From positions 372,001 to 436,000 of the forward strand of contig CM039003.1 of the NCBI GenBank assembly GCA_017499595.2: a stretch of DNA of 64,000 nt, read 5' to 3'. The notes beneath the pieces are model-generated. The model worked only from the letters and a program-made list of their open reading frames with translations. It was not told the DNA's origin and did not search any database. This DNA comes from Psilocybe cubensis (taxonomy: Eukaryota). Each line of letters begins with the position of its first letter. Position 1 is the stretch's first letter. Of this stretch, positions 13,428 to 36,597 are shown one piece after another. Position numbers and translations under genes: made by a program.

Positions 13428-15759
13428 CTAAATAGACTCCAAAATGCAGTCAACAACAGCACATCTCTTCTCCTCAAGCACAATCTTTATCGCTTTGTCA
13501 ATAGTGGACGTTAACGTATCCTTTGGTGAATTCGTCACTACATCACCTACGCGTGCACCCCATGCCCAACCAGCCGAGGCGGCAGCAGCAATCTGAGGAT
13601 AATCCGGGGGGTTTGGACCAAAGCCAACAGTGAGTTTATCGCCTGATAGAGTATTTCTGCCATGTCCTGCTGGATGTACACCAAGCATAGACAGCATTGG
13701 TGACTGTTTATAGATCAGTAAATACTATCTATATGTTAGTGGCAATACGAATGTACTGCTTACCCCCCAGCCGCCATTGTTCAAAATTATTGTCAGAAAG
13801 GGCTGAAAATAAAATATTGAGTACCATTTCTACTCAGCGTAAGGCAGATATTACTCACCGTGTTATATTTCCTTGCCATCCAGTATGCGGAACTTGGAAC
13901 ACCAAACATGAAGGAACCATCTCCGACAATATAAACTATCAAATCGTATTCTTTCCCTCCAGAAGATGCGTTGCTCATTGGTCCAAGCGTACGTGCTCCA
14001 ATAGATGCACCTATAGCTGCTCCTAGTCCCCATCCCAAAGAAGATCCTCCGCTTGTGATGACGCTGCCAGGAAATTCAGGCCTCAAATGAGTCCACACAG
14101 GAGCGAAATTACTGATCGATTCATTGAGAAATAGAGTATTAGCGCCCTTCGAGGGCGTCAGGGCCGCAACCGTCTTCCGAATGACTCCAATTAAATTTGG
14201 TACGTTCATAACGACTATGGGGTTTTGCTTTTCACCTGGTAGCGATGGTTTGCCCACCAATCTGAATTTATCTTCTTCTGAGTCAAGCTGAGAAACGAGT
14301 CGATCGTGATTCTTCCGAAGTGTCTCCCAGCGGAATCTGGTTTTTTCCTCCAGCGAAGAGTCAGCGAAATAGTCACCCAAGCACCAAGCTTCGCCTTGTG
14401 GGCGAACGCCCATTGTCCGCAGTGAGTGTTCAATTTGCTCTAGTGCAATGGCCGGTTCCGCTCGGCATACCAGTTCTGCATCGACATGCCATTGTCCAAT
14501 CCCTAGTTTCAAGGGGTCGCCTCCGTCAATAACAAACACTCTGGCATCATCGACAGGCTTCTCATTTACCGGAATCCAAGCAAGATCGCACTCAAGCACC
14601 AAGATCACGTCCACGCCTTGAAGCTTTTCCCAATGTGTCAAAGGAAAGAGCCATGTATTCCCAATGTAGCTGGGGTGAGAGAAGGGAATATTCACTGTAG
14701 ATGGACATGTGCTGATGACGGGAATTGCGAGAAGTGTGGCGAGTGATGATAGCGCTGCTACTGCTGCAGGCGAGCGTCCTGCATGAGAAGTGATTATCAA
14801 GGGTGATGACGCGGTCAGTAGTGCCTCGGATATTTTCTTCAAGGCTGCCACTCCAATCATTAGTCTTTTTACTTAAAAAAGAATGTAACCAGACGCACCA
14901 GAAGGCGTGAGTGACGTTGGTTCGATGGAAGGCCACTTTGAAATGCCGGAAATATGATCGAGACTTTCTGGATTCACTTCTTCCTCCATAACCTCACGTC
15001 GCGCCCATAGATATACAGGGCCTTTCGGCTCACTGGTAGCACTAGCAGGGAGTCGTTCAGAAAAGGGAAAATACTACTAACATTAGAACACACATTTGTA
15101 AAGCACGCTTCACACTCTGTTCAATAGTCTTCGCACTTCCTAACTGGGCAGTATGTCGCATATATTGGCGAACAATTGCTGATTGGTCCGGGATGTCTGG
15201 TGAAGATGGTGTAAGTTGATGCGTGCCGTACCTCAAAACTGGAAGTTCACGCCACCTTGTAGCCACATAATCCACTCATTTCGTGTTCCCTTGTGCTCAC
15301 CGTTCGAACTGAATGGTGACGCTCCTGCAAAAATTAACACAGGAGTACGGCTACGATCCACATTATGCACCGCTCCAGCTAGGGCCTGCAATAAAATTAT
15401 CAACCTCAAAAAAATTCAGGTCATTGGCAGATAATATGAAGGTTCGGATTCTTATTTCAGATGAAAAGATATGCTCTTACCTGCGTGCCCACATCGACAT
15501 GAATAATAACGGCGGCAGGTTTCCCAGTAACCTGTGCGAATCCTTGTGCTGCACTCAATGCGACCATTTCGTTCGGACATGTCACAATCTTAGGCTGCGT
15601 TTCTCCACCTTCGTCTTCAACACGTTGCCTTGCTAGATCTTCGAGAAGTGCAGGATGATCAGAGCCCCAATTAACGAATGCATGCGTTATACCGGCACGG
15701 GCGAGTGTGCGGAGCAATAAACTGGAGCCGGTGTACGTTGATGGTGGCCTTGAATCCAT
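13428..15759 (-). CDS. Thiamine-diphosphate-dependent enzyme (acetolactate synthase/decarboxylase superfamily), substrate unknown
   Basis: N-terminal FVNWGSDHP...PNEMVALSAAQG..HVDVGTQ and ThDP-binding GGSSLGWG / GDGSF...NNGGW motifs. Confidence 0.9.
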
Positions 15760-16492
15760 GTAGTGAACAGAAAGATACCAGCAGGGATGACTCGAAACCT
15801 TTCGATATTGCTGACTCTATTGCGTGAGAGTACCTCATATTCTGCACTTGCAAGTTGGTTGTACATGAGAAAAAAACTGAAAAAATTAAACAACGATGAT
15901 TGTATGAGATTGAACTTTGCCTTGATATATTCATAACTTCTTCTGTACAATTTCTCACAATTTTCACCCTACACAGTATACCCTTTCTACCCATACCAAG
16001 TTTCGTTCCCCTCCCCTGCTTTCCTTCTAATCTCGCGCCTGGAGCGACCTCCCATAGGCCATTTCTTCAACGGGCCGAAGTCTGCTTTACGTGTGAATCC
16101 AACAGTGATAGCGGAACACATCAGCCGTCCTTGGCCGGTTCACACGATCAAGAGTCGCGCGGCGCGCCGGCCATTTGTTCGCAATCATAACCCTTTAAAC
16201 CCGTCGCACAATAAGAGCACTGACACGCGTTCTTCACGGCGAGCATTGGCGAGACACCAGGTTGGCAAGGTACTACGCGGCACAATTTACCTTTTGTTCA
16301 CTTGTCAGCGACGACAATAACAGATAATAAGTACAGGTCTACCACGCCGTTCTTATTCATGCGATACTACAAATTACTACAAAACAGACGAGATCACAAC
16401 CCCTGGCTATTCCCCCGAAAGCTTGATGTCCGTTATAACTTTAGACCTTGGCAAGGGCAAATTTTGCTATTGTCTGAAGCTCACCTGCTGTG

Positions 16493-16502
16493 TATATATA
16501 AA
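16493..16502 (+). promoter_or_regulatory. TATA box of the pheromone precursor gene
   Basis: TATATATAAA about 105 bp upstream of ATG 16607. Confidence 0.6.
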
Positions 16503-16606
16503 GTACTGTTACTAGATATCGTAAAGTCTCAGTAGCATTCGTTCGTTTCTTCTGCCAACAGTGCCTGCGACCATTACTCGCACTCGACACTCATTACATC
16601 AATTCA

Positions 16607-16762
16607 ATGGACTCGTTCACCAACCTTTCCGCTCTTTTTGTTTCTTCGTCATTCTCTGCTGCCCAAATTCCGACCGAGCAGGAAGCCAATGACGTTGAAT
16701 CTATACCAACTGACGAGGAGAGAAACGGCTGCGCTGGAAATGCGTTCTGTATCGTGGCATAG
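16607..16762 (+). CDS. Lipopeptide mating-pheromone precursor or pheromone-like peptide (51 aa, CAAX)
   Basis: MDSFTNLSALFVSSSFSAAQIPTEQEANDVESIPTDEERNGCAGNAFCIVA*. It has the MDxF start, the P-x-D-x-E-R processing motif and a C-terminal CIVA CAAX box. It falls below the ORF-track size cutoff. Confidence 0.88.
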   Translation: MDSFTNLSALFVSSSFSAAQIPTEQEANDVESIPTDEERNGCAGNAFCIVA

Positions 16763-21786: not shown

Positions 21787-24385
21787 TTAGAGGCAGCTCA
21801 TGTAGCGCTTTTCGATATCTTTCCTGTAGTCGTCAAGGATAAGTGATCGCTTGGGGAGACCCTTTTCCCCGAACTGGAATGGCCTGTCCTTATCTGCTAT
21901 CATGAAAGCCTAAAATCGGGTATTAGCTTACTTGGGTGATACTTGTTTCAATGGGTCAAGTTATACCTCTTTTCGAATTTGAGAATGAACAGGAAGCATG
22001 CTATTTTTAGCTTCAATAATGGACCTACACAGGACGCCCGTCAATCAGAGAATATCACTATATATATTATTTCCACTCACCAGATGCGCTCAAATGAATC
22101 GTTATTGCTCTCGGAGACAGGCTGCCATATGAAGCCGCCGACATATGACCTTAATGTGTTGTAATCCGTCAGCCTACAGACAAGGTCTCCAAATAACAAT
22201 TGAAAAGTACCAGATCCGTTGAAGTATAGTAGGCGTATCGTTACCAGCTTCTAACGCATTCGGCCATATGAGAACTCCAAGGAAAGGCCTTCCGTGTCCG
22301 AAAACCACAGCAGATTTGATTTCTTCGTGTTCACGTAGTGAGTCCTCTTTTAATAATATCGAACTTAACGAAGCTGCATATATTCTTTTGGTGAGGGCTT
22401 ACCTAGGAGCATTGGATCTACCTAGAATAGCAGGTTTCACAGGATTCTGTTATTGTCTTGTTGTTTAGGGAAATAACTTGAAGTGACTAACCACTTGCCC
22501 GGAAGAAAGTAGGATCTGGTCTTTGTTTCTTCCGATGACTTTGTAATAGCCTTTTTTGAATGGATGAGGCACCAAACCATCTCCTGTGGCATATGCTGGT
22601 CTGCCATTCCACTCAGCATTGCGTATGGCAGGTTCATGGAACCCTTTCTGAGACTAGACGATTGTATTTAGTTACATATAATGCACATCAGCCTGATAAT
22701 CAAATCTTACAATAATGTATGGTTCAAAGGCCCCATTCTCGCGCGGGACTAGCTGGCAATTAATACCCGGATTCAAGGAAAAATACTCCCAGTCTTCGGA
22801 TTGCGGTTCTGAGGTATTTTGTTCAGTCAAAAAGAGCAGCTCGAATAATTGAATGCTTACCTGAGACAAATTTACTGATGTAACCGCACTCAGTTCTGTG
22901 AAATAAAAGATCGTATTTAATAACTTCCAGGGGTTACAATCTTTTAAAGATGCAACATACGCTCCGTAAACGTTGCATATCTTGACGCCGTGCGACGTTA
23001 ACCTGTCGCCTGCTGCTTTGCTGAGTTGACTTCCTCCAAACACCTGTAAAACGTCGTCAGAACATATATCTCCAAGTAGGCACATCTACTTACAATGCAT
23101 TCTCTCTCTGCCAGGAACTTGACTTTCTCCGGGTCGTTCGACCATGCCTACCAGAGCGTGTTACTTTTTAAACCGTCTGTATGACCCTCTTGGCCATGAC
23201 GACATACCTCAAAGAAACGTGGAGAAGACCATACAACGGACACCTGACTGTTCACGAATCCCTCAAAGGCTATATCCCTGTCTGCAGGTATGACCGCTCT
23301 CGGATCATCGGGGGACAAAATAGCCATGATAAACCCAGCTCTGGGCTGAATTAATAGATTCCAACGAATCAACGCGAATCAGGAACTGAAAATAGATTAA
23401 CCTACCAGCCAAAATAGGAAGCATAACCCGGCAGTATGGAAAAACTCTGCAGATTGTGCACCAAACAGCTTCCCTTCCATGAAAATGTCGGAGTAATCTA
23501 AAGCAAATTTGACCATCGTCAGCACCTGTGATATCCGAATGCCTTCAATATGGGCGAATCTATTTAACCTACTAATTGCCAGTGAGTTGGAAGTGATGTA
23601 GCTAGATGGCCATTCAATTATTTTTGGGCAAGTCGAGGTAGAACCTAGTGGAAAATGTTTTAACACTGCATAACATTTATAGGACCTGTGCAACATACAT
23701 GAGGAGTGAAGGATGAGTGCACGTTTGGAAAATTCCTCCGCATGGCGTGGAAGGGGGTCAAAGTCGTTGTGTCCTGGATATAGATCACTGTGGAGAGGAG
23801 CATCGATTACTGCCGGCATAGCATACGACGGGGTCTTCGATAGCTCATGCAAGGCGAGCGAGGTCTTCTCTCGAAGACGATCGTTGGTGAGAATATGAGA
23901 AGGGCCGGCCATTCTTAAAAGTTCTGCAACAACAGAGGGATGGAAACGGGGTGAAATTAGCAAAGCTGTCACACCAGCTCTCAAGCAACCCTTGACGCCA
24001 TTGAAAGTCAGTATGCATACTAGACTGCGGATATACAACCTGCGGAACATACCAGGATAACAGTCGCATATGTCATGTTATCTGTAAGGAGAGTCAACTC
24101 TACATAATTGCCACAGTTTATATCAGACCAACTCATTTCAGCAAATATAGCGACCAGAGGCGTTGGGGAGCTTGAGGAAGTATTCGTCAATTTTCTGATG
24201 CTTTGACCTGCTCTATGTATCCCTGGAACAATGTCTGAGTAGGTAATTAATCGTTTGTAACCGCCAGTAGAACCCTCAGGCCGAAGAAATACTGGATAGT
24301 TGGGATTGTGGGCAAGGTGGAAATCGAAAGTGTATTCAATTTCCATGTCGGAAGGTGGGGCAATGAAGGATTCTGTATGGGACAT
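21787..24385 (-). CDS. Stand-alone adenylating enzyme (A domain of the fungal NRPS-like/adenylate-forming reductase type, lacking T and R domains)
   Basis: Spliced motifs ISPR, ILHSSCSTSTCPK (A3-like), NVYGATEC, YATGDGLVPHP...VIGRNKDQI and FQFGEKGLPKR. The gene stops at YRKDIEKRYMSCL*. Confidence 0.85.
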
Positions 24386-25783
24386 CTTTGGAGGAAGAAA
24401 TCTGTGGGGGTTGTAGCGAGAAATTTACTGCTAATTTGTACTTTTCCCCCTCATTTAACTAATCTATGTAGCTGAAAATACATACAACTCTCTGGCCGAT
24501 ATCGTGATCATCCCAGGCTGTCATGAGGCACTACGGATAAACCTGGAGTGTTCAGTACATAATTAAGCTGCGCTCCCCGAGTGGTAACTGACACAACCGG
24601 AGATAACTACAACGGTTAGCGCCTTGGATATGTGTATCGTTGCTGAAATCGCTCTGAATCTTATTATAGAACTTTAACACATTGTAGATCATGATCTTGA
24701 AGCTTACATTGCTGGTGACCCTATTCAAAACTTCAATGATAATTCCGCCAACCTTCCAGATTTGTTTGGTTGTATTTTAAACAAATTTATTGATTTTGTT
24801 TGACAGTAGTATGCATATGGGGCACAAAGCTACCGAAGCCGATGGTCTCTGAGTGTGCATTATACAGCCGAGGACATACAGACGTGGGTCAATGCCAAGT
24901 GCACAACCAAAATAAAGTGGGTTTTGAAGAAGGTTTCATTGTTTCGATGTAGTATCATCGAGGATTTAATCTCACAGTTGTTCGTTAAAAACTGGAATTG
25001 ATATAAGAGTAAAAAAACCCCTATGTCTACTATGCTGCGGAGAGTGCATAATTCCCATTAATTCAAGTTAACAGCTGCTTTCTATTGAAACGCATGGCCA
25101 AAGAAGCTTTATGTGGAGAAAGGAATTCATGTCGATGTGGTTCTGATTCTCTGAACGTCGAGCGCTATAGAAGGTCTCCCCGATGTGCCCGTCTAACACT
25201 TCTCAAGGTCTTAAACTTGCCCGAAGCAGAAAATGTAGCCTTGGCTTACTGGTAGGAAACAACTTGACCAGAGACCACATAAACTAGGACATCGTACGCT
25301 GGGTCTACGTGTCAAATTGGAAATCAAAATCAAACTTTGGGAGGTTGCCTAAAAGTTCAAAATAGCTTCTAACGGCAAGGAACTCCAGGTAAAGGTACAG
25401 TACGTAATCGGGAAGGGGATAGGAACATGCTTCAGCCATATTTATATTATAAATAGACAGAATGTATGTGCGATGCGCTTCGCAGCGTGACAACCTCCAA
25501 AAGTAATTGACATAGTAGAACAGTTTCACCAGCTTGGACGTAGATATTATGATGAAGTTTGAGTCTAGTGACTGGATATCGGGCGCTCTTCGGAGAATCA
25601 AAACCAGAACTACTGCAGCGGAGCAGAGTTCAACTGACCATTCGCCGAACACCTGTATCTATGATCTATACATAGACTCAGACATAAAATGGAATTTATC
25701 CGTATGCGAAGATATCTGCTTTCAAGATCTATTCTCTAACCTATTCAACTTCGATATCGTCAAAGCTAGCTCCTTAATCTCTC

Positions 25784-27503
25784 ATGTGCGCTTCACCCGA
25801 CTTTTTCTCGTTTCCCCCTCCACAGTTTGGCAAGGATGCAAGGAAACTATTCTTTTTGGAGGAGGGGTTCGTTAACCTTAACCATGGTAATAAAACCGTC
25901 AATCTCACAACATTTACAATGTTGCTCACAAAGAATAAAAGGTTCATTTGGGGCCCTTCCTATCCCAGTTCAGGATGGTTGTTTCGAGATAACCAAAGAA
26001 ATCGAGCGAAATCCAGATGTTTTCATGCGCCAAAAGCTTCTCGAACGCATCGACGATGCGCGTGAGCTAGTTGCTCCCATGTTGGGAGCCGATCCTAGCA
26101 CCTGTGTCTTTATCCCCAATATATCTACAGGAATTAACACAGTCCTCAATAATTTTCAGTGGACATCTTCCGACGTGATTGTACACAGTAAGCCAATCGA
26201 AATTTTAGCAGACTATGTATAGCTGACTTGGTACGAAAAAAAGCTGATTCTGTGTTTGATTCCGTACTGCTTTCAATCAACCGTATGCAGACCCCACAAA
26301 AGTCTGTCTTCAAGCTTCCATTTCCACTCTCCCATGCTGCTATTCTGCAAGACTTTCGAAAACATTTGCAATCTGTGAAAGGCAGCGGAAAAGTTGTGGC
26401 CATCTTCGAGACAATGATGCCTCTTCCTGGAATAATTCTTCCATGGAAAGAAATGGTTCGAATATGCAAGGAAGAAGGGGTCTGGAGTGTTGTCGACGGT
26501 GCTCATTCCATCGGGCATGAACTCGACATTGACCTTTCTTCGGCAGATCCCGATTTTTGGATGACGGCAAGTTCTATTTTGCAGAAAAACCTTGAGTTTA
26601 GACTCTTATCGTCATGTTAGAACTGCAGCAAATGGCTCTTCACAAAGAAAGGATGCTCGATACTCTATGTCCCTTTACGGTGAATTTGATGGACATGTTC
26701 TCTTATGGGCGGCTACACTGACTTCGAATCCTAGAAATCAAGAAATAATTAACTCAACCGTTACTCCTCCCTTGACTTACCCAACCCCTGGAAAGAGGCC
26801 GAGTAGCTTTGTCTCAAAATTCTATTGTACGTTCCAGAGGTATTTGTTCATTGGTGATTCAGGCTAACTACTGTTTCTTTAGGGAATGGGTCAACCGATC
26901 TCATGTCTGTTCTTAGCATTGAATATGGTTCGTCCATTGCTATTTTCTTCAGCCACAGCTTTTCTGAAAACAATGGTTGGCATAGCAATTGCGTTCCGAA
27001 AGTATATCGGAGGCGAGAAAAAGATCAACGACTACTGCCACGAGCTAGCATTGAAAGGGGGCCGCTGCGTCGCAGCTATTCTAAAAACGGAAGTCATGTC
27101 CTCCGATAGAATTGCAGAGGAGTTGATCGGGAACATGGTTAGCACCATTGCATTTTGTAGTATGTTTTAAATACACCACTAACTCCAACTCAGGTTAACG
27201 TATCACTTCCAATTCATCAAAGCATCAAACCCTCCGGAGAGATCTACCTTTTGTACCAAAACACGTTCCTAAGTACGTACAAGATGTTTGCTCCTATCTT
27301 CTACTACAGAGGAAAGTGGTGGGTTAGAATCAGTGCCCAGATCTATAACGATGTAAGTTTACACTTTGCAAAGCCCGAATGACGCTCACGCCGGGCCTCA
27401 GATCGATGATTTCAAGAAATTGGGGGAGAATTTAGTTGTGTTTTGTCAACAACTGGAGAAGTCATCCAATATCATGGGTTTCCCATCTCCACACAGCCTT
27501 TGA
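25784..27503 (+). CDS. Class-V PLP-dependent enzyme (Egt2/hercynylcysteine sulfoxide lyase-like fold; divergent)
   Basis: FVNLNHGSFG, VVDGAHSIG, PDFWMTNCSKWLFTKKG (catalytic Lys), W.GSTD, WWVRISAQIYND. One GC-AG intron at ~26567. Confidence 0.88.
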
Positions 27504-27871
27504 TCTTATCGCTGACGAGATATCCTCTATCACCGAGGCTGTTGTGTAGTTACTTGTTATGCATCTATTTATAGGTTTAGTTATCTATTAATAGCCTTCC
27601 CTTGTTTGTTTAAACTGCGGTCCAGATCTAATTAATATGTACAAGAAATCCGGAGAAATATCATCTTCTTGTTTTATTACCTCGTGTGGACCGAATGTCA
27701 CAAAAAATATGGGTAGGATGTCTTTTGGATCACGTGTACCTCGGTATTACTTTCGAGTTTCGTGTCCCCGACCCACAGACTGTCACTTGTTCATCAGTGG
27801 TTTATATAGACATATCTTGTTGATCAAGAAAGAACCTCTTAGAACCAGCAACAGCACCCACATTCTTAGCC

Positions 27872-30551
27872 ATGGATCCCTTCCTTCCCAAATTCCGTAT
27901 CCCTACCATCGAAAGACTCGGGGTAAAGACTTGTATGCCCGATGTAACAGAAAGCACGGCCGCGCAAATTGCAAAGGATTGGTTCGACGCTTTCTCCTCC
28001 TTTGCCCAGGAACAGAATGTTTCCGGAATACAGGGACTTATTTGTGAAGATGCGCTGTGGAGGGATCTCTACGCACTCACATGGGACATCCGCACGTTCG
28101 ATGGAATATCACGTATTCAATCTTTCCTCAACGCCCGCATGCAAACCATGACAATGCATTCATTCACTTGGAGGAACTTCGCTCGATTGCAGAGGCCATA
28201 TCCTGATTTGGTGTGGATTGTCGTAATGTTTGGATTTGAAACATACGTGGGACGCTGTAGCTTTATTGCTCGGCTTGTCCCAACCCCTGGCGGGTGGAAG
28301 GCCTTCACGTTATTTACTAACTTGGAGAACCTGAAAGACTTCCCAGAGTCTATAGGCCCTTCGAGACAGAGTGTACGTGTCGCTTCGAGCGCATGGAGAG
28401 ATCACAGAGAACAAGAAAACCGGTTCACAGAGTCTAATCCGGCAGTACTGATCGTGGGAGGAGGCCAGAGCGGGTTGAGCCTAGCAGCACGATTAAAGTA
28501 TCTCAATGTGCCCACTTTGGTCATCGAAAAAGATGGTAGGATTGGGGATTCATGGAGGAAGAGATACGACTCTTTGTGTCTTCACTTCCCAATTTGTGAG
28601 CACTTCCCTTCTCATTAAGAACGGTACACATCCTCAATCATCGATTCGCAATTTCACCGATAGGGTATGACAATATGCCGTATATTCCGTATGCGTTTAT
28701 TTTGACCAAATTCCTATTGTAAAACTTACGCAAGACTAGATTCCCCCCAACATGGCCGAAATACTCTCCAGGTTTCAAGGTGCCGTTTCAATTCGTAGCT
28801 TCGTCTAGAGCATCGACATGTGCTGATAGTTCTGTAGATGGCGGATTGGCTCGAACACTATGCTGATATCTTGGAATTAAACATATGGACTTCATCAACT
28901 GTACTGGATGCTGTGCAGCATCAGGATGAGACCTGGACAGTCCGAGTAAAGAAACCGGATGGGGTCATTCGCGTATTCAATGTTAACCACTTCGGTAAGA
29001 CGAAAACTTTGTCACTTTCTAGTAAATTATCATCAACATCACTAACTGCGTTTTTGTCTTCAGTTATTGCCACAGGGCAAGGTGACGGAGTTCCACGGAT
29101 GCCTTCTATTCCCAAAGCCGTAAGTATCGTTCTCATTTCATATATGTTTATCTACTTAAAATTTACTGACTTACTGGTAGGACATTTTTCGAGGAGAGAT
29201 TTTACATTCGTCGAAATACAAACGACCAACCAACTTCGTCGGCAAGAAGGTTGTTGTTATTGGAACGGGTAACTCAGGTGCGTTTCCATTCTGAGTCTAT
29301 CACACTTGCAGGTCTGAATGCTGTTTCTCTGTGACTACAAAGGCCACGATATTGCGAGTGATCTTGCGAGGGCGAAAATAGGCAAGTGACATCGGAACCA
29401 AACTCTTTCAATACTTACAGACTGTGTACGTACAAATAGATGTGACTATGTACCAACGATCAGCTACTCTCGTCATGAATCTCGATAAATGCTGGGATCT
29501 TTTCGCTGGACGTATGCAGACTGTTTTTCGATTATCCATTATGTGAAATGCCGAAACTAATTACGTATCTTAACTTCAGCCCTCTACAGTGAAACCTCGC
29601 CACCTAACGACCTATCTGATCAGTTGTCTCAATCCATACCTCATCTCCTCTTGGAGGGAGGATTGGCTCAACGTAACACCGCAGCCATTCTTGCCAGTCA
29701 GAGGTACGTTATTGACGTTAGATCTATTTTTGGATGTTATATTTTGCTGACGCAAATATCCTCGCGGGTTAGAGAGATGCAGGACGCTCTTAGGGAAGTC
29801 GGGTTTAAGCTTAACGACGGCGTCCTTGGAGCTGGAATATTGTTAAACCTAAAACAAAAGGGAGGTGGACATTACTTCGGTGAGCTCCCCGTAACATTCG
29901 GAATCCTTGCATCCGTGACAACAATGTCATTATAATAGACGTCGGCGCGTCCCAGTTGATCATAAACGGAGACATCAAGATAAAGAGCGACAGTGCTATA
30001 CTTGAATACGAGGAGCACGGGCTAAAATTCGCAGACGGAAGTCGTCTTGACGCCGACGTCATTATTTGCGCCACAGGGTAAGTCTTCTTATGTTTCTATC
30101 AGACCCGAGGTGACCAATTGTGGATCATACAGAGGTGGCGATGTCCGTCAGATTGTATCCCAACTGTGCGGTGAATCCGTAGCTTCAGAATGTCCACCAT
30201 TTTTTGGCGTGAATGAGGAAGGGGAAATGACATGGTTCCGACCGTTCCCTAGGAAAGGATTATGGTATATGCACGGTAAATGGGTCTACTCCTGACTGCT
30301 CAGACACCCATATTCTGACTCATTTTTTACTATAGGCAACCTTTCTCTTACCAGGTTCCATTCCAAGCACGTTGCCATGTGTAAGTGACTTACTACTCGA
30401 CATGGCTTCTGTGTGTTCATAACTAACATTTCATAATGCAGACATTAAGGCTATGGAAGAGAAACTAATCATATCCCGATACCCCTCCGACATGAGCCCC
30501 AAGTGCATTCAGCTCAGACAGCTTGAGTTGCCTCCCAACAGTGAGATTTAG
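27872..30551 (+). CDS. Flavin-containing monooxygenase (class B FMO with N-terminal extension)
   Basis: WRDLYALTWDIRT, GGGQSG (FAD), IGDSWRKRYDSL.LH, ATGQG, F.GEILHSSKY (FMO fingerprint), GTGNSG.HD (NADPH), GGGHYFDVG. Confidence 0.92.
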
Positions 30552-31281: not shown

Positions 31282-34200
31282 ATGGAAAGTAACAACTCTG
31301 AGAGCGACTCTGGAGCATCTCGAAGATGGTCTTTCAGACAACCTTTAAAGGCAATGGGTGCCAAATCATTCGACAAAAACAGTTAGTATATCCATACGGA
31401 AAGCGTTCTAGCATCGTCTTATTAGGCATCCCGTAGATTCATTGAAGCATCAATCGAAGTCAAGTTCAAAAGAAGGTAAATGGTGATTTAGCTCATGATT
31501 TGAAAAATTACCCTCAATTTTTAACCAGGTCAAACAGAAGTCGCTTCGAGATCTACAGGTTTAGATACCAGTACTCTGACTAATAGCCATCCTCATATAG
31601 GTGAAGGCAGCATAAAATGAAGCCAGTAGTCACGAATTCTGATACACATACTTACAGGCAGCGATGATACAAAGATTTCTGGGCGTAAGTTAAAGTTGAC
31701 AGGCAGGGTACTCCAAACCCTCGTGACGAGGGCGTTGGAGATCGCGGACCCTAACCCAGTGAAGGTCGCTTTGGGCCTTATCAAAACTATCATTGATGTG
31801 GCTCAAGTTAGTACTGCTTGCTTTCGGTGCTTTTGCAACGCTCAAGCATATTTGTATAGATAATTAAACAAAATAAGGATACAATAGCAAGAGCAATCGT
31901 CAAAACCGGGCAACGTCTGGAGCTGGTTGAAGCTACGTTGTCACAAATTACGCTAGGAAGGAAGGAAGAGGAAGCATTATGGTTAAATCATTTCAAAACG
32001 TGGGTCTCTTTTGACGCTATATCTATCGTTTTTTATAAAAAGTAATTTTATCCGTGCAGAGCTCTCCTTGATTCATTGAATGAATTGAAGGAACTTGACG
32101 ACAAGTCAAAACTGGTATCAGCTCTGGACCACGAAGATATTACAGTCACCATTCGAGGCATCTTTGAGCGCATCGACGATTCCAGGGTGGAATTGGAGGT
32201 GTGTCTGAGACCTTAGACTCATTCCGTCAATTTTAATGCTCACAAGGTTTTCCACAAATAATAGTTGGCATTAGGGATAAGGACCTTTAAGGCTATCTAT
32301 CAAGTAGACAAAGCGTTCAAGGTTAGTTGTTTATTCCCTTTTGACTTTGATTCGTCTAAGCGGCATCCTCCTACCCAGGATCAATTTCTGGAACGCCTCA
32401 GGCCTTCCAATATTGCCCACCATGATTATAATCTCGAAGGTCAAGAAGGGCAGATGTTACATCGTCGCGTTTGTACCCCAGGAACACGTGTTGGCATCCT
32501 GGGACATATTGTAGCTTGGGCTAAAGATATCTCGGAAACCAGTCCAAAGGTCTTTTGGCTTTTCGGTCACGTTGGATCAGGGAAGACCACAATTGCATAC
32601 TCCATAGCTCGACGTTTTGAATTTGCCGGAGATTCTGATGACACGATCGTCCTTGGAGCAAATTTCTTCGCTTCTCGACAATTTGACGAAACACGACTTT
32701 CCAAGTACATTGTGCCTACGATCGTATACCATTTGGCACTCAAATGTAAACCCTTTGCAGAAGCTTTGTACCATTCTGGGCGGTTGGAAGTGATCAACCA
32801 TAACATTGCCACTCAGCTTGACGCTCTCCTTTTTGGCCCTTGGAAGAAATGTGAATCTGCTCGTCGTGCAGATACATCGATTCCACAGCACTACCTCATA
32901 GTCATCGATGCCCTTGACGAAATAGAGCGAAGTGGAGGTTCACAATTTCTGCTTATTCTCTTTGATATTCTCAACAGGTATCACCAAAACGACCTCTACG
33001 GTCTAAAGTTCTTCTTAACCAGCAGGACAAACAAGGAAATCGTAGACCACGTAAATTCTTTGCTGCGCAAAGAAATATATCATCTACAGGATGTCAAGGA
33101 AGAGGATGCCCGTGAGGATATCTCCAAATACCTTCGTTCTTGTCTCCCGCACTTTGTAGGTCGTCCGGAACTGGATGCGCTCCAAGAACACGCGGCTGGA
33201 TTGTTCATTTACGCTGCCACATTTGTAAAGCTCCTGGAACACCGTAAACCAGCAGAACAGAAGAGGGTGCTTAACAACCTTCTTTCCAATCAGAAGGCGA
33301 GACAATCGCAATCCTCATTACAAGACTCGCAGATGTTACTCAACCGTTTATACTACGATATTTTGATTGATGCCTTTGGGAGTCACAGTGGAGATGAACG
33401 CATGGACCGGCTCTCGATATTGTACACTTTTCTCTGTGCTAAAGAGCCTTTGACAATAGCCGCTGCTGCTGATATTCTGTTCGAAGTTGACGTAGAAGAA
33501 GAAGATCCCGAATTCTCCTACCTCCCAGTGGCGAAGGACGTCGTAGAACGTCTTCACTCTGTCATATATGTCAAAGACGACAGAGTTCTTTTCTACCACA
33601 AGTCATTCCCAGATTTTATGATGGACAAGGCCCGCTCTAGGGACTTTTGGCTTGATCTACCAAATCATCATCGACGTCTCACCAATGATTGCTTCCGGCT
33701 CATGGAAAACATGTTACGTTTTAATATTGCCAACATACCAACCTCCTTCTATTTCGACGAGGAAGTTGGAACGATTAAAGCAGAAATTGAACGCAATATT
33801 CCACCAAGCTTGCGGTATGCCTGTCGGCATTGGGATCATCATCTATGCTCTACTGTTCCAATAACTTCTTCTGAGCCTCTGAACCAAACATTATCTTGTT
33901 TCTTAAAGCTCAAAGCCCTGTTTTGGATTGAAGCCATGAACTTGCTGGGGTTCCGTGGCCATTGCTACCCCATGCTTCAGGCCGCCAGAGATTGGACTGC
34001 CACACTGTCTGATACCAGTGCCTTATTAAGCCGACATTTTGCCGAAGCAGCTTATTTTGCCGTGTATTTTAGTGGAAGCCCTGCTTCCCTCTCAACTCCA
34101 CACCTCTATATCTCTTCATTGGCGACCTGGCCACGTAGCCTCCATCCTTGCGGGAACTGGAAGGCGCACTTCCCTCGAATTCCTCGGTTTCGCAATGCTT

Positions 34201-36597
34201 TACAGGGCGGGACTACCGTAATGTCTTTCCTGACAAATGGCGAAGTCATTTCAGTCGCTATATCTGCTGATGATACACATATTGTGGCTGGTTTATCAGA
34301 TGGGTCAGTGCGAGTATGGCATGGTTTGACGGGTGAGGTGGAGCATCTTTTGGAGGGTCATGATGATCAGGTCAACTCTGTTTCGATATCTGGAAATGGA
34401 GGATTGATAGCCTCAGGTTCAACCGATAAATCGATTCGATTGTGGGATACTTTGACCGGGGAGGCAAAGGGTCTGATCAAAGGTCATAACAGTATAATCA
34501 ACGCCGTCGCATTGTCGAAGGATGGAACTCAGGTTGTATCTGGTGCCAGCGATAAATTGCTTCGAATTTGGGATACGTTAACTGGCACATTGAAGGCGAC
34601 TCTCTTGGGTCACCTCGCCATAGTCAAGTCAGTCACTTTCTCCAGTGATGGGTCCCGGATTATATCTGGTGCGGCAGACAACTCGATTCGGGTTTGGGAT
34701 GTGTCCACAGGCACGGAGGTTTATTCTTTGAGTGGTCATACGGACTGGGTATATTCCGTTGCGTTCTCGGATGACGGCACAAGCATAGTCTCTGGCTCAG
34801 CGGATGGGTTAATCTTAATTTGGGATACTTCAAAGCGGGAAGTGACGAAGACTCTGAAGGGCCATATAGGGTTGGTAAAATCAGTGGCGTTTTCATTGGA
34901 CGGAACCCGTATTGTTTCCGGTGGAACTGACTGTTCGGTGAGACTGTGGAATGTCTCCACAGGCAAGGAAACCAACCTATTCAAGGGTCATGTCGATTAT
35001 GTGTATTCGGTGGCATTCACTGGAGACGGTACCCGCATCATATCCAGTTCAGCGGATAGAACTATAAGAATGTGGGACGCCGTAAGAGGAGAGGAAGAGG
35101 TGCACATAACTCAGGGTCACTCAAGTGCCGTCAAGTCAGTCGCTATTTCTCGGGATGGTTCTTTGATTGTGACTGGGTCAAGCGACAAGTCAGTTCGAGT
35201 ATGGAGCGGAGCGGGCCAGGTCATGCATGTGCTGATGGGTCACAAAGGCTCAGTAAACTCAGTTGCTATCTCGGAAGATGCAACTCTCGTCGTTTCCGGC
35301 TCTTCTGATAATTCAATTAGAGTCTGGGATGCTCTTACAGGCGAGCAAAAATGTTTGCTGGAGCGTCACACAAGCTCGGTTCAGTCGGTCTCGTTTGCCG
35401 GAAATAGCACGAGTCGGATTAGGTCTGGTTCGGGTAAAAAAATTATTCGATTGTCCGACGACTGGGACTTTGTGATGGAACAGGAACACAAGTTTTCGTT
35501 GAAATCCAGGGATAGTCGTTATTACAACCCCAGTCCGGCGGATTGCTGCTGGAATCGACGTGAAAAACCTTGGGTGAACTCAATAGCATTTTCACCCACT
35601 GCCATAATTGCTGTAGCGGGCCTGGATAACGGATTGGTGCAATTGATCACTGTCGCAAACGGACACCTGAGGAAAGTGACGAACTTACAGCGACATAGTG
35701 CATCAGTAAATTCTGTCACATTTTCGAGAGATGGGTGCAGAATTGTGTCAGGATCGGATGATGGGACTGCCCATGTCTCGAGCGTTAACCTTACCTTTGA
35801 TAGAGGAATAATTTTAGCGAAATGTGACCTCATTGGAACATTGGAATGTCACTGGCAAGTCCAATCAGTTTCCTTTTCAAACGACGGACGCCGTATAGCA
35901 GCTGGTCTAGCTGATGGCTCAATTATAATCTATCATGCGTCGAAATTCTATGCTCTGTACGGAATGTATGGCCACAGAAGCTCGGTCAGATCACTGACGT
36001 TTTCGATGGATAACACCCGCCTTATATCTGGATCCGACGATGCATCAGTCCGAGTTTGGAATGTAGCTTCGATAGAGAAATGGGAGCTGCAGGTACTAGT
36101 GAACCCTTTTCTTCGAGACCTTCAGCTAAAAACTTGCTATACCGCCTTAGATGGAACTCTGGTGTAAGCTGGAAAATGCGACGAATGGTGCACCGCCTTA
36201 CTCCATTTCTCCGGACGACAACGATCGCTTGGACATGATGAAGTTTTCCAACTTCAAAATGGGCGAAGTCATGGGCGAAGAAAGATTTCAGGGTCTTACG
36301 GACACCCTGAAACTTCCCCTAAATGACTGTTCTACATTCGAAGTAGAACCTCAAGATATTCGCTATGTTCATCAAAGGGCCTTGGTTATGGACAGTTTAA
36401 ATGTCACTGGATGGCTTTACATGCCACTCGACGTCAAATATGGCAAGTATCTCATGTTCGTTCCGCCAAGTGACCAGCTTCCAGACGACAGCAATATCAT
36501 AACAATACCCGAATCTTGCGTTTCGCGGGTTGACTTCACAGATGCGAAGATTGGGGATGAATGGTCATTATGTTATTCTCCGAAGCCTATGGAATAG
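31282..36597 (+). CDS. NACHT-WD40 (NWD/HET-E-like) fungal NLR-type protein
   Basis: CTPGTRVGIL, Walker A GHVGSGKTT, Walker B LIVIDALDE, AAGLFIYAAT, FYHKSFPDF, then roughly 13-14 WD40 repeats (GH...VAFS.DG..IVSGS.D.SVRVWD). Short 5' exons inferred from ATG 31282. An intron at 36093-36150 joins the last exon. Confidence 0.92.

Follow-up and report, generated by a model that had tools for sequence, protein, structure and literature searches.

The ibotenic-acid (ibo) gene cluster of Amanita muscaria encodes an adenylating enzyme, a flavin-containing monooxygenase (FMO) and enzymes that depend on pyridoxal 5'-phosphate (PLP) (PMC7383597). Genes of the same three broad enzyme classes lie next to one another in the genome of Psilocybe cubensis, in a stretch of 64,000 nucleotides (contig CM039003.1 of assembly GCA_017499595.2, positions 372,001 to 436,000 of the forward strand) that we call the window and from whose first letter all positions below are counted. 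The trio occupies positions 21787 to 30551, and a preliminary inspection of the DNA (hereafter the original prediction) had proposed that it represents a minimal ibo-type pathway. Our analysis points to a different view of the locus. We judge its conserved core to be a pair of genes, for a class-V PLP enzyme and a type IIb class B FMO, that lie adjacent or near to each other in several mushroom families; each enzyme falls in a derived clade of paralogues from mushroom-forming fungi. No description of this locus was found in the limited collection of literature that was searched, and we assign no product to the pair.

The resemblance to the ibo cluster is supported at the level of enzyme class only. 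IboG1 and IboG2, the PLP enzymes of A. muscaria, share 38-39% identity with a cystathionine gamma-synthase, whereas the PLP protein of the window has Aminotran_5 (3e-14) as its sole Pfam match at E<=0.001 and the class-V enzymes Egt2 and LolT as its best matches in the PDB. The other two ibo enzymes have been described by their sequence identity, IboF at 21-24% to two heteroatom oxygenases and IboA at 21% to an adenylation (A) domain (PMC7383597). Because the PLP enzyme of the window belongs to another family than IboG1 and IboG2, we judge the locus not to be ibo-like, and the central element of the original prediction is not supported. Pfam searches, from which short exons could escape, revealed no 2-oxoglutarate (2OG) dioxygenase, cytochrome P450, decarboxylase or gamma-synthase domain in the 121 open reading frame (ORF) pieces of at least 90 amino acids in the whole window, nor in 111 pieces of 55-89 amino acids located between 12 and 21.5 kb and between 30.6 and 48 kb. 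This outcome bears out the accompanying remark that no IboH-, IboC- or IboD-type gene is visible in the window. A stripped-down version of the ibotenic-acid pathway is made very unlikely by the mismatch in PLP family, together with the lack of such domains among the pieces scanned, and an ibo-type assignment beyond enzyme class is not supported by these comparisons. We consider the combination of adenylating enzyme, PLP enzyme and FMO to be too coarse a signature for inferring ibotenic-acid-like chemistry.

The proteins encoded in the window are identical to public P. cubensis proteins (for example, a 264-amino-acid ORF piece of the FMO matches the public protein P0001 at 100% identity), and the window is fungal in character, with short introns. 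Mapping of the public proteins by tblastn, with start and stop codons checked, confirmed that three neighbouring enzyme genes are present and apparently intact, as had been claimed. The PLP gene extends from 25784 to 27503 on the forward strand, with its ATG at 25784 and an in-frame TGA at 27501-27503. It is followed in tandem, 368 bp downstream, by the FMO gene (27872-30551, forward strand; ATG at 27872, TAG at 30549-30551), which was recognized by its Pfam matches, by its similarity to the JsFMO structure 8ACS and by transcript-like contigs. The third gene, for a stand-alone adenylate-forming enzyme, is transcribed divergently from the PLP gene and is described further below.

This arrangement is obscured in the public record. 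P0001, a model of 1032 amino acids named hercynylcysteine sulfoxide lyase, merges the PLP and FMO genes by means of a supposed intron at 27440-27830. We conclude that these are two genes, because a contig of sequencing run X1 is unspliced over 27402-27626 and thereby crosses both the P0001 donor site at 27440 and the stop codon at 27501-27503, because the unspliced reading yields a C-terminal DFxxLGxxLxxxC that is common to relatives, and because the PLP and FMO proteins of Psilocybe cyanescens are annotated as two separate models. The start of another X1 contig, at 27722, precedes the FMO ATG. Runs X1 and X5 are not on record as RNA and are guessed to be so, and their contigs cannot rank expression; X1 behaves as RNA in that its contigs carry GT..AG spliced joints. 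X1 contigs cover the PLP and FMO genes, the latter over 27722-28595 and 28836-28993, and spliced contigs of this run are also found over the upstream gene for a protein resembling glycoside hydrolase family 15 (GH15). The adenylate-forming gene has no X1 cover and a small partial piece in X5, whereas the PLP and FMO genes have no X5 cover, and these blanks are evidence in neither direction.

P0001 also lacks 13 FMO residues that complete the second GxGxxG motif, which serves in NAD(P)H binding. The corresponding exon is present in the DNA as a micro-exon of 39 nt at 29343-29381 (forward strand). It codes for the last part of G-HDIASDLARAKI, and a GC..AG intron comes directly after it at 29382-29439. 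Both features rest on a reading of the sequence and on homologous models, since P0002 of P. cyanescens and P0009 of Collybiopsis confluens include the equivalent residues; no RNA joint was seen among those listed, with a further 24 joints lying outside the list. The name given to P0001, the fusion of two genes and the loss of part of the NAD(P)H motif would together mislead any reconstruction of the pathway.

Gene order in other fungi suggests that the PLP and FMO genes belong together. The entire trio is found in a second genome, that of P. cyanescens, where consecutive locus tags denote the FMO (CVT25_005457), PLP (005458) and adenylate-forming (005459) genes on a contig with a reported length of 49,316 bp, and the PLP-FMO pair recurs beyond the genus. 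A single model of 908 amino acids from C. confluens (D9757_001270) contains both the PLP and the FMO part and is collinear with P0001 (48% over 922 positions). This merged model is probably the same annotation artefact as P0001, and it still demonstrates the adjacency and orientation of the two parts. Paramarasmius palmivorus carries the PLP gene (VNI00_011083) and the FMO gene (VNI00_011087) four tags apart on a contig reported to be 426,038 bp long. We take Psilocybe, Collybiopsis and Paramarasmius to represent three families. A comparison of tags in Lentinula involved different strains and is therefore uninformative with regard to adjacency.

As a control, metagenomic sequences were scanned with an alignment of the PLP clade to which the window protein belongs, and the flanks of the 76 loci recovered were searched by tblastn for relatives of the other two proteins. 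The PLP motif at these loci was H-K or Y-K in 71 cases and S-K in none, the site being uncovered in the other five. No relative of the FMO or of the adenylate-forming enzyme was detected in the flanks of any of the 76 loci (at least 1 kb was available downstream in 38 and upstream in 39), and the same search recovers both of these genes when applied to the window.

The PLP protein is a member of the class-V family that includes Egt2 and LolT. It matches Neurospora crassa Egt2 (5UTS/5V12) with 7e-62 over residues 12-356 and 363-404, and LolT (8DL5) with 9.3e-55 over its whole length (9-406). The Schiff-base lysine and a VDGAHS motif are retained. However, the lysine lies in the context N-C-S-K-W, whereas the relatives of this protein have N-C-H-K-W, such that serine replaces the histidine preceding the catalytic residue. 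The position equivalent to Tyr134 of Egt2, a residue that we take to be catalytically important, is occupied in Psilocybe by phenylalanine, which is the same change as that in the Y134F chain of 5V12.

These substitutions are largely shared within a distinct clade. An exhaustive HMMER search that started from the P. cyanescens PLP protein yielded 3681 representatives with E<=0.001, the best 150 of which were listed, and a FastTree phylogeny of the family was computed for 137 rows after 18 rows shorter than 330 amino acids had been removed. The window protein falls in a clade of 12 rows, wherein the residue before the lysine is serine in nine, alanine in one, asparagine in one and unreadable in one (a faulty model); outside this clade, H-K is present in 113 of 125 rows and neither S-K nor A-K in any. 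The Tyr134 column of the 12 rows holds phenylalanine in nine, tyrosine in two and tryptophan in one. When 38 chosen rows were analysed with IQ-TREE, the 11 rows of the derived type formed one clade with support of 100/97, nested among canonical sequences of Agaricomycetes. Both the derived and the canonical clade include one copy from Lentinula edodes and one from Schizophyllum commune, and thus the two clades are paralogues, with the window gene on the derived side.

Functional data are available for the canonical side. Lecsl of L. edodes, a canonical-type protein of 497 amino acids with His250-Lys251, has measured activity on S-methyl-cysteine sulfoxide and on cysteine (PMC4460571). A member of the derived clade from the same species, P0136 (432 amino acids), bears the source name cysteine sulfoxide lyase. 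The window enzyme shares with Egt2 and Lecsl the class-V family, the catalytic lysine and VDGAHS, and differs from them in having S-K in place of H-K, in having phenylalanine in place of Tyr134 in Psilocybe, and in being paired with an FMO, an arrangement seen at none of the metagenomic loci. In ten of the 30 relatives scanned for additional domains, a gamma-glutamyl cyclotransferase (GGACT) domain is joined to the PLP domain on its N-terminal side (P0130, P0137, P0145, P0147, P0160, P0163, P0173, P0179, P0195 and P0198). Such fusions would fit a family habit of acting on cysteine conjugates derived from gamma-glutamyl compounds or glutathione. A heme-oxygenase domain was observed in one relative (P0153) and a DM9 domain in one (P0146).

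The FMO likewise carries substitutions at active-site positions. Its Pfam matches are FMO-like, Pyr_redox_3 and Lys_Orn_oxgnase, and it matches both domains of JsFMO (8ACS, 3.2e-94, chain residues 44-604). The GxGxxG motif for flavin adenine dinucleotide reads GGGQSG, the FMO motif FxGxxxHxxx[YF][KR] reads FRGEILHSSKYK, and the GxGxxG motif for NAD(P)H reads GTGNSG once the micro-exon is included. With these motifs and an N-terminal extension homologous to that of JsFMO, the protein belongs to the type IIb FMOs, a group that is common in fungi (PMC7570161). Enzymes of the JsFMO type have been described to possess sulfoxidation and Baeyer-Villiger activity (PMC10028610). Pfam called no SnoaL domain in the window protein.

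A search with the FMO gave 801 hits, the best 120 of which were listed, with several paralogues per species, and a FastTree phylogeny was computed for 119 of these 120 (one kinase fusion was dropped). The window protein resides in an Agaricales clade of 24 rows (local support 99) that also contains the partners of the Collybiopsis and Paramarasmius PLP enzymes, whereas a second P. cubensis FMO, P0028, and the Amanita sequences are placed outside it. If a 16-residue offset is assumed between the numbering of the PDB chain and that of the JsFMO paper, and residues are counted on the alignment, then the columns for His-216, Asp-217 and Tyr-458 of JsFMO read H-F-H in 21 of the 24 rows, the window protein included; the three sister rows read H-W-H (two) and H-F-H (one), and among the remaining 92 rows H-D-Y appears in 73 and H-D-F in eight. 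The active-site set H-D-Y of JsFMO is thus replaced by H-F-H in an enzyme that otherwise retains both domains and all three motifs. Tyr-458 is reported to be conserved in every N-terminally extended type II FMO examined to date (PMC10028610). We regard H-F-H as a marker of the clade and not as a proven change in function.

The adenylate-forming gene is located on the reverse strand at 21787-24385 (ATG at 24385-24383, TAA at 21789-21787) and codes for a protein of 570 amino acids. The corresponding public protein, P0126, is collinear with the DNA over 24385..21790 and carries the name adenylate-forming reductase Nps10; its identity to the ORF query is 77% because the query includes residues derived from introns. 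An AMP-binding core (PF00501, 6e-21) is joined to the C-terminal subdomain AMP-binding_C_3 (PF23562, 3.5e-24), and the sequences NVYGATE, YATGD, GRNKD and GEKGLPKR can be read in P0126, which we take to be the A5, A7, A8 and A10 motifs of the ANL superfamily (acyl-CoA synthetases, adenylation domains of nonribosomal peptide synthetases (NRPSs), and luciferases). The protein is therefore an ANL enzyme. It does not qualify as an NRPS-type A domain or as an NRPS-like protein with adenylation, carrier and reductase domains: Pfam detected no carrier (PP-binding), reductase (NAD_binding_4) or Condensation domain in it, and it scored 55 bits against the amino-acid adenylation model TIGR01733, for which the cut-off is 317. 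At the position that we presume to be A4, where amino-acid A domains have an aspartate that binds the alpha-amino group, it has FFHTAG. Structural matches are weak (malonyl-CoA ligase 3nyq, 2.1e-6; anthranilate-CoA ligase 5oe3, 6.8e-5), and the nearest entries in the ESM Atlas are fungal stand-alone clusters with AMP-binding and C_3 domains, followed by NRPS-like enzymes with A and reductase domains. The P-loop, SSCSTSTCPK, is unusual in being free of glycine. Taken together, this enzyme looks to be acyl-activating, and not an activator of alpha-amino acids of the NRPS kind. The original prediction was consequently accurate as to a stand-alone adenylating enzyme, as it was for the class-V PLP enzyme, the class B FMO and a trio devoid of an NRPS or polyketide synthase; the label NRPS A domain would be too specific for this protein.

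A word-based search for relatives of the ANL enzyme that yielded 2230 candidates identified three proteins, all from Psilocybe, namely P0126, its P. cyanescens orthologue and a paralogue. The paralogue, P0128 of P. cubensis, is 58% identical and has the same glycine-free P-loop; it is located on another contig, which differs in size from that of the FMO paralogue P0028. When metagenomes were scanned with these three proteins, 240 pattern matches were obtained, none of which was confirmed. The intergenic region between the ANL and PLP genes (24386-25783, 1.4 kb, with gene ends as given by the tblastn maps) could be a candidate promoter shared by both.

Given these characteristics, we propose that the FMO and PLP enzymes may act in succession on one substrate of the amino-acid type, in a two-step process of S-oxygenation followed by C-S lyase cleavage, and we place the probability of this reading at roughly 40%. 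The FMO would consume NAD(P)H and O2 and oxygenate the substrate at a soft heteroatom; the likeliest target is sulfur, in either an S-substituted cysteine or a gamma-glutamyl-cysteine conjugate. The PLP enzyme would then cleave this intermediate by beta-elimination, with release of pyruvate, ammonia and either a sulfenic acid or a thiol. The ANL enzyme would convert a carboxylic acid into its acyl-adenylate, perhaps on the way to an amide or thioester, and may thereby supply or amidate the substrate. The identity of the substrate, the sequence of the two reactions and a part for the ANL enzyme are inferences; the scheme is favoured because family relationships suggest that the PLP enzyme works on the beta-carbon of cysteine-type substrates and that the flavin enzyme oxygenates soft nucleophiles, and because of the GGACT fusions noted above. 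Similar logic is known from the alliin/alliinase system of Allium and from GliK and GliI of gliotoxin biosynthesis, in which S-oxygenation precedes PLP-dependent C-S cleavage or the removal of a gamma-glutamyl group is coupled to a C-S lyase acting on a glutathione conjugate. Alliinase and GliI differ from the window enzyme in being outside the class-V Egt2-like family, and no sulfur metabolite has been tied to the window locus.

A number of observations weigh against this proposal. The proposal of a C-S lyase step extends to the derived clade what is known of its canonical paralogues; the literature consulted contains no member of either derived clade, PLP or FMO, with a known substrate, and lyase activity could be lost or changed in an enzyme that has serine in place of the histidine beside the catalytic lysine and phenylalanine in place of Tyr134. 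Recombinant Lecsl1 of L. edodes, which may belong to either PLP clade, was reported to have no C-S lyase activity (PMC11677154). Membership in the PLP family does not in itself fix the chemistry, because LolT, from the same family, is a Mannich cyclase (PMC13351049). With regard to the FMO, the H-F-H signature need not alter function, since the D217A and Y458F variants of JsFMO are described as losing approximately half of their activity, which is not abolished (PMC10028610). The synteny also has exceptions. The two genes of Marasmius tenuissimus (PM082_019967 and PM082_020059) are 92 tags apart, apparently on one contig, and the PLP and FMO copies listed for Fomitopsis serialis and Leucoagaricus, among the best 120 of the 801 FMO hits, are on contigs that differ in size. 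Neighbouring genes can be adjacent without sharing a function, and the association of the ANL gene with the pair is one of position only, in two species of one genus.

Some of these points would be accommodated if there were no shared pathway at all and the genes were merely neighbours by descent. In that case the PLP protein could serve as the C-S lyase of ergothioneine biosynthesis (Egt2) or as a lyase for cysteine conjugates in general; the FMO could be one of many detoxifying paralogues, and the ANL enzyme an unrelated acyl-CoA ligase. The public name hercynylcysteine sulfoxide lyase agrees with this explanation, as do the multiple FMO copies (at least P0028 besides the window gene in P. 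cubensis), the housekeeping genes in the flanks and the separation of the pair in M. tenuissimus. Moreover, no canonical Egt2 of Psilocybe was encountered among 30 named representatives, a set that includes one sequence per 50% cluster and stems from a search that was not exhaustive. Nevertheless, we regard independence of the genes as unlikely, even if it must be taken seriously. The same two derived clades are adjacent or near each other in Psilocybe, Collybiopsis and Paramarasmius, none of the metagenomic loci has an FMO or ANL neighbour, both proteins bear active-site signatures specific to their clades, and the PLP protein has lost the histidine and the tyrosine expected of Egt2.

A second alternative retains a joint pathway and changes its chemistry to C-C bond formation, in the style of LolT or of the ustiloxin and kaitocephalin enzymes UstD and KpbH. 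The FMO would turn an amine into an electrophile (imine, oxime or aldehyde), the PLP enzyme would generate a quinonoid nucleophile and perform a Mannich or aldol addition, and the ANL enzyme would add an acyl or amide group to yield an unusual amino acid or alkaloid. The loline (LOL) cluster also contains an FMO, LolF, and LolT scores almost as well as Egt2 against the window protein over its full length. The role of LolT in loline biosynthesis demonstrates that the family fold performs chemistry beyond C-S cleavage (PMC13351049), native PLP-dependent Mannich and aldol enzymes are described from fungal clusters (PMC13741828), and a move away from lyase chemistry would be consistent with the histidine and tyrosine that the derived clade has lost. 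Yet LolT itself keeps D-C-H-K-W and the tyrosine, and for this reason the derived clade resembles LolT no more than it resembles Egt2 at these sites. LolT is an enzyme of an ascomycete cluster, whereas the window gene is nested among Egt2/Lecsl-type sequences of Agaricomycetes, and the Pfam scan of ORF pieces in the flanks found no other LOL-type gene, such as a gamma-type PLP enzyme, decarboxylase or 2OG oxygenase. On balance, C-C bond formation seems improbable. Far less credible still is a minimal ibo-type module, in which the ANL enzyme would form an amide, the FMO would N-hydroxylate it and the PLP enzyme would close an N-O heterocycle by beta-substitution. The shared enzyme classes, and the likening of IboF to heteroatom-oxygenating FMOs when the window FMO is also of class B, speak for this idea. 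It is opposed by the gamma-synthase-like character of IboG1 and IboG2, by the outcome of the scans for IboH-, IboC- and IboD-type domains in the flanks, by the acyl-activating appearance of the ANL enzyme according to our motif reading, and by the placement of the FMOs of Amanita thiersii and A. brunnescens in another clade, with no A. muscaria protein among the best 120 of the 801 hits.

Alongside sequential S-oxygenation and C-S cleavage, we also entertain a bolder scenario, which is tentative and on present indications doubtful. Both partners may have been remodelled together, the PLP enzyme from H-K to S-K and from tyrosine to phenylalanine, and the FMO from aspartate and tyrosine to phenylalanine and histidine, for a coupled reaction new to either family. 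The product would be a small S- or N-oxygenated metabolite of the amino-acid type, and the ANL ligase with its variant P-loop would have been recruited as a third step in Psilocybe.

The surroundings of the trio are as the original prediction had described them, with a GH15-like gene on one side and a gene resembling those of NOD-like receptors (NLRs) on the other. TREH_N and weak Glyco_hydro_15 matches are found in the upstream flank at 17.6-20.7 kb, and the downstream flank contains a NACHT/NPHP3_N and WD40 ORF at 32265-36164. This NLR-like ORF (forward strand) runs uninterrupted for 1300 amino acids with many WD40 repeats, and its intronless structure is unusual for the region. Housekeeping genes recognized in the ORF scan of the window include those for ATP synthase subunit F, a mannosidase of glycoside hydrolase family 2, Rce1, the 51-kDa subunit of complex I, a thiamine pyrophosphate (TPP) enzyme, an electron transfer flavoprotein and chitin synthase. 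The TPP enzyme gene (13796-15816, reverse strand), with TPP_enzyme_N, M and C domains, lies beyond the GH15-like gene at about 6 kb from the ANL gene and is probably a housekeeping gene. An ORF piece at 16502-16759 (forward strand) matches the fungal mating-type pheromone family PF08015 (E 7.9e-5; score 24.1 bits, cut-off 22), and no receptor gene was noticed near it.

If the PLP-FMO pair is a functional unit, then many Agaricales, including the cultivated genus Lentinula and the psychoactive genus Psilocybe, would possess a small metabolic module that is not flagged by cluster finders. The pair would in that case offer a handle on the Ser-Lys variant of the Egt2/Lecsl C-S lyases, and equally on the H-F-H type IIb FMOs, which are enzymes of biocatalytic interest.

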